Positions 4,243 to 46,951 of a stretch of DNA of 64,000 nucleotides are shown one piece after another (positions within the stretch are counted from its first letter, which is position 1; each line of letters opens with the position of its first letter). Source of the DNA: an uncultured Clostridia bacterium (GTDB lineage Bacteria; Bacillota; Clostridia; TANB77; CAG-508); the NCBI GenBank assembly GCA_904378095.1, contig CAJFHE010000001.1, positions 12,018-76,017 on the forward strand, given 5' to 3'. The notes beneath the pieces were generated by a model. The model did no database searches. It saw only the letters and a program-made list of their open reading frames with translations, and was not told where the DNA came from. The translations under genes were made by a program, and so were the position numbers.

Positions 4243-4421
4243 TTTGTTTACATCCTTTCATGTGTATTATTATAGCATATAAAGATTTCCTTGCGCAATA
4301 TAGGGACACTTCTAAATGTGAAAGATTTTGCACATTAGGGACAGTCCTAAGCAATATGACAAAAATATTCGATATTAAATTCACTTCAAATTTGAGGATA
4401 ATTTTTTTATCTTTATATCTA

Positions 4422-4517
4422 CAAAAATGTGATAAATATTACAGAAATACTTACAAAAGTGTGATATATTATGCAAAAATATTTGCAAAAATGTGATTTT
4501 AGATGTATAATTAGTAT
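4422..4517 (+). promoter_or_regulatory. three CAAAA(A/G)TGTGAT boxes at exact 32-bp spacing upstream of DUF4143 ATPase 1
   Basis: TGTGAT starts at 4428, 4460 and 4492. The middle box overlaps a -10-like TGATATATT. Confidence 0.6.
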
Positions 4518-4543: not shown

Positions 4544-5851
4544 ATGATTTGTTTGAAGAGATTGATATTAGAACAATTAATAAAATGGAAAGAAAGTAAA
4601 TATAGGAAACCATTAATTTTAAAAGGGGCAAGACAGATTGGAAAAACATATATTTTAAAACAATTCGGCGAAGAAAACTATGAAGGAGTAGCATACTTTA
4701 ACTTTGATCATGATGAGAATTTGTATAATTTATTTAGTAATACCAAAGACCCGAAAAGAATTTTAGAGCAATTGTCATTTATATATGGAAAAGCTATTAT
4801 TCCTGGAAAAACACTAATAATTTTTGATGAGATTCAAGAATGTCCAAATGCATTAAATAGTCTGAAATATTTTCAAGAAGAAGCAAACGAATATCATATT
4901 GCTTGCGCCGGTAGTTTGTTAGGAATAAGATTATCACACACATCTTTTCCAGTTGGCAAGGTTGATTTCTTAAATATGTATCCAATGACATTTACAGAAT
5001 TTTTAATTGCAGATAATTGCGAAAATTTGGTGGAATATATGAAAAGCATAGAAAAAATAGGAGCAATTCCTGATATATTTTTTAATCAACTAGAAGAAAA
5101 GCTAAAAGCTTACTTTATAATTGGTGGGATGCCGGAAGCAGTAAAAATATGGACAGAGGAAAAAAATATTGAACTAGTAAATAATATTCAAGAAAATATT
5201 TTAAAAGCTTATGAAAGTGATTTTTCAAAACATACTAGTAATAGTGAAGCAAACAAAATTTCTTTGATTTGGAATAATATACCTTCACAGCTTGCAAAAG
5301 AAAATAAAAAATTTCTTTATCAAACAATTAAAGAAGGTGCAAGAGCGAGAGAATATGAATCAGCTTTAAATTGGTTAAATGATGCTAACCTAATTTATAA
5401 AGTGTATAATTTAACTAAAACAGATTTTCCGCTAAAAGCATACAATGATTTAAGTGCTTTTAAAATTTATATAAATGATGTTGGTTTACTTAGAAGAATG
5501 GCTAATTTAGATAGTAGAATTGTAGTAGAGGGAGATAAATTATTTGAGGAATTTAAAGGCGCATTTACGGAGAATTTCATATTAAATATGTTATGCAGTA
5601 CGTTTGATATGGTACCTAATTATTATACATTTGATAGGCATGAAATTGATTTTATTATTCAATTTAAAAACAAAATTATTCCTATAGAGGTAAAATCAAA
5701 TAAAACAACCAATAATATTAGTTTAACAAGATACAATGAGAAAAATAATAATGAATTATCAATAAGGCTTTCAATGAATAATTTGGTTAGAGATGGCAAG
5801 ATATTGAATATTCCATTATTTTTAATCGAATTTTTAAATAAATTTATATAA
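4544..5851 (+). CDS. AAA+ ATPase with C-terminal DUF4143-type domain (paralog 1)
   Basis: Walker A GARQIGKT and Walker B LIIFDEIQ. Paralog of 16911..18248. The start could instead be the TTG at 4553. Confidence 0.8.
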   Translation: MICLKRLILEQLIKWKESKYRKPLILKGARQIGKTYILKQFGEENYEGVAYFNFDHDENLYNLFSNTKDPKRILEQLSFIYGKAIIPGKTLIIFDEIQECPNALNSLKYFQEEANEYHIACAGSLLGIRLSHTSFPVGKVDFLNMYPMTFTEFLIADNCENLVEYMKSIEKIGAIPDIFFNQLEEKLKAYFIIGGMPEAVKIWTEEKNIELVNNIQENILKAYESDFSKHTSNSEANKISLIWNNIPSQLAKENKKFLYQTIKEGARAREYESALNWLNDANLIYKVYNLTKTDFPLKAYNDLSAFKIYINDVGLLRRMANLDSRIVVEGDKLFEEFKGAFTENFILNMLCSTFDMVPNYYTFDRHEIDFIIQFKNKIIPIEVKSNKTTNNISLTRYNEKNNNELSIRLSMNNLVRDGKILNIPLFLIEFLNKFI

Positions 5852-5906
5852 TATAATTGAAAAACTTGTATATTTGGGACACTCCTTGAGGTAAAAAAAT
5901 GAAAAT

Positions 5907-5989
5907 ATTACAAAATTATTACAGCAATATTAAAAATATGTTACAAATATGCCTATAGGGTTGAAAAAAGCAGTCTGATAGTATAGAAT
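5907..5989 (+). promoter_or_regulatory. promoter of locus A: three (A/G)TTACA boxes, then TTGAAA-17-TAGAAT
   Basis: Boxes at 5907, 5918 and 5940 (offsets 0, +11, +33). -35 at 5961-5966 and -10 at 5984-5989. Homologous to 45722-45804. Confidence 0.55.
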
Positions 5990-6105
5990 AACATCGAGAT
6001 AGTTGTAGGAAAACTACAATATATGAAAAGTGGATTTAATATATATAATGTCACTTTGCAAATATGAAATGAGCAACAAAAAAATAATAAATAAAAGGAG
6101 AAAAA

Positions 6106-6252
6106 ATGCAACACAAAGAAACTGCTGAAACCCTTGAGACTGTACACACACACACACACACACACAAGTATTTCTATACAAGTGTGTCAATTTGCTATGT
6201 TTACAATACAAAAGAGGAACAAACAATACCTATGCGGAAGATAGCCGAGTAG
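6106..6252 (+). other. 48-codon leader ORF containing (CA)11; encodes an HTHTHTH dipeptide repeat
   Basis: AAGGAG RBS and ATG at 6106. The stop lies in AGTAGGCTTT, the homologous position to the locus B leader ORF stop. Confidence 0.3.
6144..6166. repeat. dinucleotide microsatellite (AC)11+A
   Basis: Uninterrupted acacac... run counted directly. Confidence 0.95.
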
Positions 6253-6290
6253 GCTTTGTTTGCGTTGCACAAAATAATATAAAGGAAATA

Positions 6291-6352
6291 ATAGGCTATA
6301 TATTTGAAACAAGAAAGTTAGAAAAATGTTTCTAGGAATAGCCTATATTTTT
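6291..6352 (+). terminator. hairpin plus T-run after the locus A leader ORF (terminator/attenuator-like)
   Basis: ATAGGCTATA/TATAGCCTAT outer stem, GAAAC/GTTTC inner stem, then TTTTT. Confidence 0.5.
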
Positions 6353-6525
6353 ATAACAAAAACATGCACTTAAAAATAAATGCAAAAAACAAGCAAGCGA
6401 GGTGAGTCAAAGTGAATATAGAAGAACAAATTGAAGTAAAAAGTATAAAATTAGAAAATAAGGACAAATATGCATAAAAAGTGCAAAATATGTGAATAAT
6501 GTTAAAAAATGGAGGAGGAGTAAAA

Positions 6526-6621
6526 GTGAAAGAAAAACTAAAAAGTAATCAAGCTATCACATTAATTGCATTAGTAATAACATTAGACACTATTGGTATT
6601 ATAGCACAAATGGAAATATGA
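6526..6621 (+). pseudogene. truncated remnant of a protein with a pilin-like hydrophobic N-terminus
   Basis: GGAGGAGGAG RBS and GTG start. VKEKLKSNQAITLIALVITL... stops after 31 codons. Confidence 0.4.
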
Positions 6622-6693
6622 GTGATTATGCAAGCGCAACATCAGGAGATTTCGGAACAGGAGAAAAGAACACGCAAACAATGCTCTAAAAGA

Positions 6694-6738
6694 TTATCCA
6701 CATTTTGGGTTTACCTCAATTTGTGGGTAATTTTTTTT
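6694..6738 (+). terminator. intrinsic terminator closing locus A
   Basis: TTATCCACA/TGTGGGTAA stem followed by T8. Confidence 0.65.
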
Positions 6739-6844
6739 GTCTCAAAAGTATAGCTAAAAGAACATTTATATGATACAATATGTACGTATATAAAAGCGAA
6801 AGTGGAAGACGAGAAAATAAAGAAGACAAAGGAGAAATTGAAAA

Positions 6845-45563: not shown

Positions 45564-45646
45564 GCCGATGTGGCGGAACTGGCAGACGCACCAGACTCAA
45601 AATCTGGCGGGAAACCATGTGGGTTCGAGTCCCACCATCGGTACCA
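45564..45646 (+). tRNA. tRNA-Leu (anticodon CAA)
   Basis: Cloverleaf folded by hand: acceptor GCCGATG/CATCGGT, anticodon stem CCAGA/TCTGG with loop CTCAAAA, long variable arm, T-arm GTGGG-TTCGAGT-CCCAC, encoded CCA. Confidence 0.85.
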
Positions 45647-45721
45647 ATGGAAAAACAACTATAAATAGCTTGTATCTGAGAATACAGGCTGTTTTTATGC
45701 TCATGTGAGTGACAAACGAAT

Positions 45722-45804
45722 ATTACAAAAATGTTACAGAAATATTAAAAGAATATTACAAATGAGCTAAAAGGATTGAAAATAATATACTAAAAGGATA
45801 TAAT
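45722..45804 (+). promoter_or_regulatory. promoter of locus B: three (A/G)TTACA boxes, then TTGAAA-17-TATAAT
   Basis: Boxes at 45722, 45733 and 45755 (0, +11, +33). -35 at 45776-45781 and -10 at 45799-45804. Same architecture as locus A. Confidence 0.6.
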
Positions 45805-45873
45805 TGATTTGTACTTATGGTTAAATAAAATGCAGAAGCAAATAAAGTAAAAAAAGGAAGAAAGTGGGAAAAC

Positions 45874-45954
45874 ATGAAAAAAACGAAAACCTTGGAAAGC
45901 ACTGATATACTAGAGAGAGAGAGAGAGAGAGAGAGCTACATCCTAGAAAAGTAG
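45874..45954 (+). other. 26-codon leader ORF containing (AG)12; encodes an ERERERE repeat
   Basis: ATG at 45874. The stop lies in AAGTAGGCTTT, homologous to the locus A leader stop. Confidence 0.25.
45912..45935. repeat. dinucleotide microsatellite (AG)12
   Basis: Uninterrupted agagag... run counted directly. Confidence 0.95.
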
Positions 45955-46078
45955 GCTTTATTTGTGATGCAAAAACTAACTGCAATGCAAGCATAAAAAA
46001 CAGTAAAAAATTAGCAAAAAAAGAATATATAATAAAAAAATGGGTAGACTATGGAAAGCAAGAAAAAGCGAGAAATAG

Positions 46079-46951
46079 TCTGCCTTTTTATATTCTATAG
46101 AAGCAAGAAAAAACACACCAGTATCAGATGACCAAGGAAATACAGTAGTAATACCAGGAGGATTCCATTTAGATGAAGATAGTGGAACGAGTGTAGAAGA
46201 AGGAATAGTAATAGAAGATGGTAGTGGTAACCAATTTGTATGGATACCAACAGGAACATACAATGTAACCGAGGCAGTGGATAATGATGGAACAAAAGAT
46301 GGAAAACTAACAAATAATTTAAGTAGAAGAACATTTACAGACACAGGAGCAACAGAGGTAAGTGGAGATAATGTAATTGAAGATTACTTTTATGGAGAAG
46401 GAGATAGTCGTTCAGTAGCATATTCACAAATAGGAGCATTTAAAGACAGTGTAAGTAAAAATGGTGGATTCTATATTGGTAGATACGAATTAGGTACAGG
46501 AAATGTAGTAAAAGCGGGAGTAGCTCCATATACAAATATAACAAGAGATACAGCAAAAAGTCAGATAGAGGCGATGTATAGTGGAAATGGTTATGTAACA
46601 AGTGAGTTAATAAGTAGTTATGCATGGGATACAGCATTAAACTTCATATGTCAAACAAATATTGCAGGATATACATTAGCTAGAACAACAAGTAGTAGTT
46701 ACGGTAATATATATACAGGAAGTAGGCAAAATACAGGAGCATATGAAGCAGATAATTATAGTAATATCCATGATTTACTAGGTAATTGTAGAGAATGGAC
46801 TACAGAGTACTTTAGTCGTAGCTACGGTCCTTGCGTGTCTATGGGTGGCAATTACAGCACCGGCCTCTACTACGCAGCCGTTCGTAGCAACAGCAGTACG
46901 AGCTATTCCAACGATGACATCTCAGCCCGTGCCCAGCTTTATTTAAAGTAG
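46079..46951 (+). pseudogene. FGE-sulfatase / C-type-lectin-fold protein lacking an in-frame N-terminus, with a DGR-VR-like 3' end
   Basis: The frame is open from 46079 with no ATG (first start-like codon is GTG 46277). GGFYIGRYE and HDLLGNCREWTTE are SUMF1/FGE-like motifs. The last 126 nt are compositionally aberrant. Confidence 0.65.

Follow-up and report, generated by a model that had tools for sequence, protein, structure and literature searches.

Host-adapted pathogens, among them Neisseria, Haemophilus, Campylobacter and Helicobacter, are known for phase variation by simple sequence repeats (SSRs). The CTCTT repeats of Neisseria opa and the CT repeats of Helicobacter pylori outer-membrane protein genes act at the level of translation, from the leader or signal-peptide region, while in Escherichia coli trp and pyrBI the ribosome mediates attenuation of transcription. 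To our knowledge, SSR phase variation has hardly been documented in gut Firmicutes, for which invertible promoters dominate the literature. The closest described system is pil1/pil3 of Streptococcus gallolyticus, in which GCAGA repeats in the gene of a leader peptide determine where the leader stops with respect to a terminator (Danne et al., 2014, PMC3894217). Expression is low when the leader stop falls 28-39 nucleotides (nt) or more before the hairpin and high when it falls within or after it, an effect that needs both leader translation and the terminator (PMC3894217). Here we describe two loci, A and B, in a 64,000-nt stretch of the genome of an uncultured Clostridia bacterium (contig CAJFHE010000001.1; the whole stretch is referred to as the window). 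With a probability of roughly 0.6, we read them as pseudogenes that belong to a large family of phase-variable contingency loci equipped with a leader-frame attenuator. The window has a G+C content of 30.7%, and the public runs that carry its sequence are mostly chicken-gut metagenomes.

An earlier note, made from the letters of the window alone, had proposed that the two loci are paralogs of about three-quarters identity, and the comparison bears this out. Without gaps, 5900-5990 and 45715-45805 agree at 65 of 91 positions (71%), far above the 49/91 (54%) of the best unrelated 91-mer, both strands of the window being compared, and above the background of such comparisons (mean 27.5 matches, standard deviation 4.6). 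The blastn core joins 5904-5967 to 45719-45782 (81% identity over 64 nt, E 9e-12), with a second collinear match in a 25-30-mer box (83%, E 0.015); in degenerate form, the shared 25-mer has exactly two occurrences in the window and none in shuffles. Tandem Repeats Finder (TRF) and regular expressions found no more than two dinucleotide tracts of at least six units in the 64 kb, namely (CA)11.5 at 6144-6166 in locus A and (AG)12 at 45912-45935 in locus B.

Upstream of both tracts lies an array of four TTACA boxes phased by 11 bp, which within the window is confined to A and B. On the forward strand, as are all features below unless stated otherwise, the array of locus A spans 5904-5950 (ATTACA at 5907 and 5918, ATTAAA at 5929, GTTACA at 5940) and forms a period-11 row in TRF; that of locus B has boxes at 45722, 45733, 45744 and 45755 and together with its promoter covers 45719-45804. 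The ATTACA spacing of 0/+11/+33 that the earlier note had read is present at both loci (5907, 5918 and 5940; 45722, 45733 and 45755), and so are the sigma-70-type promoters, TTGAAA-17-TAGAAT at 5961-5989 and TTGAAA-17-TATAAT at 45776-45804. Their hexamers agree with the consensus at 10/12 (A) and 11/12 (B) positions, and such matches are no rarer than in shuffles; the promoter assignment is therefore supported by the conservation of the hexamers between the paralogs and not by the consensus match.

The leader open reading frame (ORF) of locus A (6106-6252 in its present phase) follows a ribosome binding site (RBS), AAAGGAG, at ~6094-6100. It starts at ATG 6106 and encodes 48 amino acids (aa), MQHKETAETLETV-HTHTHTH-…, with an N-terminus …TLE[TA]V that is conserved across the family. 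The (CA)11.5 tract, which reads HTHTHTH, is hypermutable and is the proposed frame switch. The present phase ends at a TAG (6250-6252) in the conserved box GTAGGCTTTGTTTGCGTTGCACAAA (6249-6273), of which B-type relatives have a homologous copy. A tract one unit shorter or two longer would open an alternative long frame (6168-6335), with its stop at 6333-6335 in the attenuator hairpin; in L226, a (CA)10.5 allele of locus A, the long-frame leader measures 75 aa. The terminator-like hairpin extends over 6285-6355, its core at 6291-6347 being followed by ATTTTTAT; 6285-6350 folds with -15.6 kcal/mol (z -3.6) and is then followed by AUUUUUAU. Beyond it, the effector remnant (6511-6621) comprises the RBS GGAGGAGGAG, a GTG at 6526 and a 31-codon ORF, KSNQAITLIALVITL…, with the segment …AITLIALVITL…, and a final intrinsic terminator closes the locus at 6690-6741 (hairpin 6690-6734, -19.6 kcal/mol, z -6.0, then U8). 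The hairpin, the RBS with its pilin-like remnant and the final terminator had all been picked out before, and each was found in its place. The description of locus A as a decayed copy also stands, as the 31-codon remnant is all that is left of its effector: ~20 codons of the pilin-like N-terminus survive, and the gene is otherwise deleted. All other assemblies that carry locus A have this remnant in identical form, and its …AITLIALVITL… compares with …GITLIALVITI… in the full-length N-termini of P0034 and relatives.

In locus B, the present-phase leader (45874-45954; ATG 45874) encodes 26 aa, MKKTKTLESTDIL-ERERERE-SYILEK, the (AG)12 tract reading ERERERE. Short ORFs with an RBS, an ATG and a dipeptide tract, as the earlier note had described them, are thus present at both loci, and both end in their present phase within the shared 25-mer, here at 45952-45954. 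This common TAG is real, but it ends only one of the three phases, and the phase that matters is the long frame, which reaches into the terminator. With (AG)11, the long frame of locus B (45936-46100) gives a 74-aa leader through the whole attenuator, with its stop 15 nt after; a 74-aa gene is indeed called at this locus in L001 and L002. The attenuator hairpin (46042-46092) is formed by GGGTAGACTAT…ATAGTCTGCCT, followed by TTTTTAT, and 46042-46085 folds with -19.0 kcal/mol (z -4.6). The frame of the truncated effector ORF (46082-46951) opens inside the T-tail of this hairpin; the ORF has only the predicted C-type-lectin/FGE-fold domain and is devoid of an RBS, a start codon and a pilin-like N-terminus. 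Because its product aligns only from ~residue 130 onward of full-length proteins such as P0034, and because the ORF opens in the terminator tail, locus B must have lost its RBS, its start and ~130 N-terminal codons. The implication that only locus A is decayed consequently has to be given up, the terminator of locus B being fused to the middle of a gene. Locus B has kept everything through the terminator, joined to the last two thirds of the effector. Both window switches are relics, and their leaders are now in the short, OFF-type phase.

Several observations concern the locus B region itself. Directly upstream of its boxes, 45564-45700 holds a tRNA-Leu(CAA) together with its own terminator hairpin (45663-45695). 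One exact 151-nt contig from the gut metatranscriptome run X42 covers 46571-46721 in the truncated ORF, a weak hint that the relic is still transcribed, with DNA carry-over as another possible source. In the long-read assembly L004 (~2600), the locus B leader ATGAAAAAAAACG has A8 instead of A7; this comes either from a homopolymer error of the long reads or from a second run in the leader that is prone to slippage. P0001, at 84% identity the nearest homolog of the locus B domain, stands directly behind an FGE-like domain ORF in another frame (L019 1-690 / L020), an arrangement that points to a two-domain gene with a frame disruption.

The two loci belong to a much wider family. The effector-alignment scan, which covered one genome per species, yielded 78 loci, all of them in metagenome-assembled genomes (MAGs) of uncultured gut Clostridia, often with 6-10 copies per MAG. 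In at least 20 of these loci, a regular-expression scan located a dinucleotide tract ~500-700 bp ahead of the conserved domain, always after the same leader …CTTGAAAYTGTA (peptide …[ST]LE[AT]V), with (AG)7-14, (TA)8-10 or (AT)9 as the repeat; further family members, for which the earlier note had proposed a search of the genome, thus do exist in other MAGs, with a tract at the same place. When metagenomes were scanned for the leader motif followed by (CA)n, at least 120 contigs were recovered, with (CA)6-25, from human, shrew, marmot and other guts, and the 82 (CA)n tracts measured in the 80 loci analysed were 13-51 nt long. The repeat at the leader position is therefore a conserved design feature of the family and not an accident. 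The strictly conserved pre-tract motif CTTGARRYTGTA might have a role of its own in ribosome positioning or in promoting slippage, beyond descent alone. An Rfam scan returned two tRNAs only, the leaders matching no known riboswitch or leader family, and neither a description of this family nor SSR phasomes of this Clostridia group were found in the literature searched, where absence is not proof of absence.

Two arrangements of the cassette can be distinguished. In type 1 loci (L029, L058 and the L106/L163 protein family), the effector ORF itself begins with the leader and tract, as in MSKSSKNIETV(RE)nLHYKPIKEKRGITLIALV…, which would amount to ordinary translational phase variation. In type 2 loci, which include A and B, L026, L032, L049, L051-L053, L059, L067, L094, L060, L098 and a TA sub-family, the short leader ORF stands apart from the effector gene; the conserved box and a strong hairpin with its T-run come between them, and the effector has an RBS and a start of its own. 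This RBS follows the hairpin at a distance of 60-130 nt in the pilin-like loci. An intact regulated gene, which neither locus A nor locus B has, is present in L032, L049, L051-L053, L059, L067, L094 and the TA-type loci.

The frame geometry of the type 2 loci carries most of the argument. We recorded the stop position in the three post-tract frames and the hairpin location for 19 loci. In all 19, exactly one frame ends in the hairpin or at most 54 nt after it, while the other two stop at least 28 nt before it, usually 4-19 nt from the tract; the hairpins range from -15 to -29 kcal/mol. Counted from the tract, locus A has short stops at +78 and +86, its long stop at +169 and the hairpin at +125 to +181, so that the short frames end 39-47 nt ahead of the stem and the long frame in its 3' arm. 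The corresponding values in locus B are +11 and +19, +165, and +107 to +150, with the short frames ending 88-96 nt ahead of the stem and the long frame 15 nt past the hairpin. In dinucleotide shuffles, the chance of a frame open to the hairpin loop was 0.0-0.5 per locus (0/500 for L026, 0.044 for locus B, and 0.016-0.026 for L104, L136 and L166, with L104 at 0.016). For the longer leaders, a frame of this reach is thus improbable in such AT-rich DNA.

The hairpin is itself conserved as a structure. Across 11 AG-type loci, 98.9% of the cells in the outer 10 stem pairs are paired, and compensatory double changes occur at 5/10 pairs. The stem covariation score is 0.586 against 0.409 when shuffled, a value that 0/500 shuffles reach, and slid controls give ~50% pairing. 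This outer-10-pair alignment was used because MAFFT followed by RNAalifold on the raw hairpin segments misaligned the 3' arms and predicted no pairs. Similarly, folding took the place of a consensus terminator scan of the window, which missed the attenuators as their loops exceed its 8-nt limit. A trp-style 1:2/2:3/3:4 antiterminator scheme was considered and is not claimed: a helix between the 5' untranslated region and the box appears in locus B, L032 and L067 and is inconsistent across loci, and from five B-type leaders RNAalifold recovers no more than the terminator and one small hairpin of the tract 3' end with the box.

The tracts vary in length at both window loci, a point that the earlier note had proposed to check. 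Nine assemblies with near-identical flanks carry 3.5, 3.5, 5.5, 10.5, 11.5, 11.5, 14.5, 15.5 and 15.5 units at locus A, with predicted leaders of 40, 42, 48, 50 or 75 aa, and locus B has (AG)11 in two assemblies, L001 and L002, and (AG)12 in six others. Two more contigs, L008 and L010, begin exactly at the locus B tract, one Logan contig (run X4) has a 2-nt deletion there, and Logan contigs break at both tracts, where depth rises 5- to 100-fold, since the leader and tract are common to many other contigs of those samples. We regard the family membership and hypermutability of A and B as highly probable. Since both window effectors are broken, their present variation speaks for mutability and not for selection. 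The earlier claim that the repeat is selected and no accident is accordingly upheld insofar as the tract is a conserved family feature, but the case for selection has to rest on the intact relatives. Phases among the intact loci are mixed, about one third or fewer being long or in frame. Most sampled loci, A and B included, are in the short phase, and the long phase is found in L053 and in the (AG)11 allele of B.

Because the frame geometry equals that of the pil1/pil3 switch, we propose the same mechanism, which on the sequence evidence we consider somewhat better than an even bet. An intact locus consists of a promoter (in this sub-family with four TTACA boxes ahead of it), a leader …K-[ST]-L-E-[AT]-V, an (AG)n, (CA)n or (TA)n tract, a terminator, and an RBS with the effector gene, with stop codons in two of the three frames close behind the tract. 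Slipped-strand mispairing would change the tract by +/-2 nt and rotate the leader through the three frames. In the two short frames the ribosome would halt at least 28 nt before the terminator, leaving the hairpin free to fold and to end transcription (OFF); in the third frame it would enter or cross the hairpin, block its folding and let transcription reach the effector gene (ON). In the simpler type 1 variant, the leader and tract are fused in frame to the effector's own leader peptide, which would give translational ON/OFF. As no consistent antiterminator helix was established, we infer simple ribosome occlusion, as in pil1 and pyrBI, for both the antitermination step and the ON/OFF assignment.

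Several points weigh against this proposal. In the short TA-type leaders, chance alone keeps a frame open as far as the hairpin in a fair share of cases (p 0.23-0.37 per locus), and the covariation alignment, being built from individually folded hairpins, is biased to structure. Both window effectors are broken, so nothing is switched there now, and RNA runs gave sparse contigs only, mostly from paralogs. Transcription-translation coupling is weak in Bacillus subtilis, which disfavours ribosome-mediated antitermination. On the other side, streptococcal and lactococcal precedent indicates that ribosome-mediated antitermination can work in Firmicutes (PMC3894217).

The same frame geometry would also fit a post-transcriptional effect, in which translation of the long frame unfolds the hairpin or nearby structure and acts on mRNA stability or on effector initiation, by coupling or RBS unmasking, instead of on termination. 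An AAGGAGG resembling a Shine-Dalgarno (SD) sequence within the hairpin of some (CA)n loci, such as L099, and the uncoupled transcription and translation of B. subtilis would agree with this. Yet the hairpins of the pilin-like loci have the trailing T-run of intrinsic terminators, the effector RBS is found 60-130 nt past the hairpin and not inside it, and the precedent that has been dissected acts on transcription (PMC3894217), which leaves a post-transcriptional effect unlikely in our view. Alternatively, the tracts might be neutral microsatellites in dead DNA that switch nothing, their co-occurrence at A and B stemming from a slippage-prone proto-repeat. Both window loci are pseudogenes, the tract of A still varies though its effector is gone, and such a proto-repeat exists, as L014, a relative without a long tract, has GTAGAGAGA, (AG)3, at the tract position. 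Neutral drift is nevertheless difficult to reconcile with long tracts of three motifs at the same site before many intact genes in several MAGs, with conserved off-frame stops and a long frame open up to a covarying terminator, with type 1 tracts inside intact coding regions, and with the want of any third dinucleotide tract in 64 kb; we regard it as quite improbable.

A functional, phase-varied small protein of 55-75 aa encoded by the long frame, with the downstream gene independent of it, would account for the 74-aa gene called in L001 and L002 and for the weak peptide conservation of the box in the long frame (VGF(V/I)C in A/B, NLVLFVVQK in L049). Long-frame peptides are, however, poorly conserved across sub-families (20-80 aa), the frame of the box relative to the long frame differs between loci, and the end of the long frame tracks the hairpin and not a peptide motif, making this a very improbable explanation. 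The earlier note had left it open whether the tract is a switch or a spacer. A frame switch inside a translated leader agrees with the first, whereas a length-dependent spacer or an RNA or DNA element independent of frame (promoter geometry, regulator phasing, or an SD-like (AG)n) is not favoured: phased regulator boxes do lie upstream and (AG)n is purine-rich, but the tract lies 150-160 nt past the -10 hexamer, inside an ORF with its own RBS and start, (CA)n and (TA)n substitute for (AG)n at the same site, which makes a common sequence-specific role unlikely, and type 1 loci make sense only as frame switches. We give a spacer hardly any chance. The leader-frame attenuator, by comparison, is the reading we retain for the type 2 loci.

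More than 7,000 proteins of the metagenome collection, typically of 380-440 aa, are related to the effector of locus B, and full-length members such as P0034 begin with a basic leader and then (K/R)GITLIALVITIV…. In the motif (K/R)G|ITLIALV(I/V)TI, the Gly at -1 and the hydrophobic segment are present, but Ala takes the place of Glu at +5. In one source (JGI), P0034 goes by the name 'pseudopilin PulG'; searches of the full-length protein against Pfam and NCBIfam, prepilin N_methyl models included, gave no hit at E <=0.01. Because the N_methyl models gave no hit and +5 is Ala, we use 'pilin-like' only as a label. The FGE-sulfatase model PF03781 stayed below its gathering threshold of 23.3 bits for both the window fragment (18.9) and P0021 (18.6).

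An AlphaFold2 (AF2) model of P0034 from a 114-sequence alignment has a mean predicted local distance difference test (pLDDT) of 85.6, with helices at 18-53 and 58-91 and a globular domain above 95; for the window fragment, a 20-sequence alignment gave a pLDDT of 35. Foldseek against the PDB matched the P0034 model to PvdO (5hha, E 1.2e-5), then to CarF, Treponema denticola TvpA (2y3c), several formylglycine-generating enzymes (FGEs), TaqVP and Mtd, at probabilities of 0.9-1.0 and with modest target-normalised template modelling (TM) scores of 0.32-0.50. The C-terminal domain of the effector is thus predicted to adopt the C-type-lectin/FGE fold, the fragment of locus B being assigned through its homolog P0034. 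This fold is used by several diversified ligand-binding proteins, and we infer a surface or adhesin role for the effector.

Other gene families appear to stand behind the same cassette, alongside the pilin-like C-type-lectin-fold proteins. Behind …SLEAV-(CA)n leaders and a hairpin, an S24/S26 signal-peptidase-like gene occurs in L102 (7938-8600), L109, L116, L120, L138, L146, L148 and L150; this group comprises 12 loci with tracts of 13-31 nt, and Pfam scores 25.7 bits for Peptidase_S24 and 23.2 bits for S26. Tandem arrays of membrane-anchored paralogs of ~250-360 aa (L163 7378-10019; L106 3855-5900) consist of copies that start MK(N/E)KESLEAV(HT)n in frame, some in phase and others out of phase. 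Proteins of 120-150 aa beginning 'MIP…', without a Pfam match, follow (CA)n leaders in L127, L113, L129, L131, L133, L158, L185, L193 and L204, and are possibly phage-related receptor-binding modules. In L013-L018, the same leader with (AG)3 and without a terminator lies ~480 nt upstream of the P0056 gene (e.g., L014 2600-3010), and this pilin-like gene has the same 1-nt frameshift, GTATTTCGGAGATGATGG, in 6/6 independent contigs, which could be a fixed pseudogene or a recoding site. Tentatively, and at slightly less than even odds, the window relics point to a large undescribed SSR phasome in low-GC gut Clostridia, in which one portable cassette (…[ST]LE[AT]V, a dinucleotide tract, and with or without an attenuator) may have been recruited repeatedly before unrelated gene families, in two modes.

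A regulator may act above the stochastic switch. The WalR consensus of B. subtilis is TGTWAH-N5-TGTWAH (PMC9210968). On the minus strand, 5907-5923 reads TGTAAT-N5-TGTAAT, and this consensus is matched exactly at 5907-5923(-) and 45722-45738(-); the whole window holds 3 matches against 1.36 expected, and 19/100 shuffles reach 3. B. subtilis PhoP boxes resemble WalR-type hexamer repeats. The box arrays recur upstream of the relatives L032, L051, L067, L094 and L098. As a lead only, the four-box array suggests a candidate binding site of an OmpR/PhoB-class (WalR/PhoP) response regulator. Triple overlapping arrays of the same consensus also stand before other family members (L038 1912-1950, L095 1611-1649, L209 916-954), which suggests a regulator common to the family.

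The surroundings of locus A hold further features. In the haplotype L223, which is without locus A, the DUF4143 ATPase gene ends 170 bp before ruvA (L223 1320-1500) and only two TTACA boxes are left ahead of the ruvA promoter region; because of this haplotype, we regard locus A as an insertion/deletion polymorphism in the population. In the window, an intergenic tandem repeat of period 32 (4420-4497, 2.4 copies, TACAAAAATGTGATAAATAATACAAAAATACT) lies upstream of the DUF4143/AAA_14 ATPase gene (4544-5851). An alternative code (TGA = Trp) for the remnant ORF of locus A was dropped, as all neighbouring genes read normally in table 11. We also rejected the idea that A, with its N-terminus, and B, with its C-terminus, might be assembled into one gene by site-specific recombination: both are simple deletion derivatives of complete members, in direct orientation, 40 kb apart and among housekeeping genes.

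The window result itself is the more modest one, two fossils of a switch system. If the wider interpretation is true, small-genome uncultured gut Clostridia would stochastically vary dozens of putative adhesin-like surface proteins per genome, by a compact leader-peptide/terminator switch so far shown in one streptococcus only. This would offer a testable model of strain-level surface heterogeneity in commensals, and a small, portable and tunable stochastic switch. It would also account for assembly breaks and mis-called genes, many members being annotated as N-terminally truncated proteins.

Compared with pil1, the type 2 loci have the same parts in the same order: a promoter, a short translated leader with a non-triplet SSR, a stem-loop terminator and a surface-appendage gene. 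Their short leaders likewise stop ~28-39 nt or more upstream of the hairpin and the long ones within or after it, the tract number differs between isolates, and several loci per genome bear the same device. They differ from pil1 in a repeat unit of 2 nt (AG, CA, TA) in place of 5 nt, in a leader and effector without sequence homology to it, in a host that is an uncultured Clostridia and not a streptococcus, and in effectors that are pilin-like proteins of a predicted C-type-lectin fold and not sortase-assembled pili. The family is also far larger, single MAGs having tens of copies and metagenomes hundreds of loci, and the same cassette is in addition fused in frame to the gene (type 1); its function here is deduced from sequence. 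It is these type 1 relatives (L029, L058, L106/L163) that resemble opa and the H. pylori SSRs, as the tract lies in the 5' coding region before a hydrophobic N-terminus, the frame would set ON/OFF, and the variable repeat peptide would fall in a part possibly removed from the mature protein, as in classical SSR loci. In the type 2 loci of the window, in contrast, the leader is an ORF of its own and a terminator stands between the tract and the gene, and the organisms are Gram-positive gut commensals.

As in trp and pyrBI, the leader ORF extends close to or into an intrinsic terminator, and whether the hairpin forms would depend on where the ribosome stands. The input, however, would be a heritable stochastic change of the DNA frame and not the level of charged tRNA or UTP, and no convincing alternative antiterminator helix, as in trp, was established here. 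The effectors share their predicted fold with Mtd, TvpA and TaqVP, targets of diversity-generating retroelements (DGRs), and also with PvdO, CarF and FGE, and like the DGR proteins they form a diversified, probably surface-exposed binding family; their diversity would come from many SSR-switched paralogs and not from retroelement mutagenesis. The kind of switch is therefore already known from one streptococcus, and its in-frame variant from Gram-negative pathogens. What is new is the dinucleotide unit, the independent origin, the host lineage, the scale, the occurrence of both modes on one cassette, and the class of effector.

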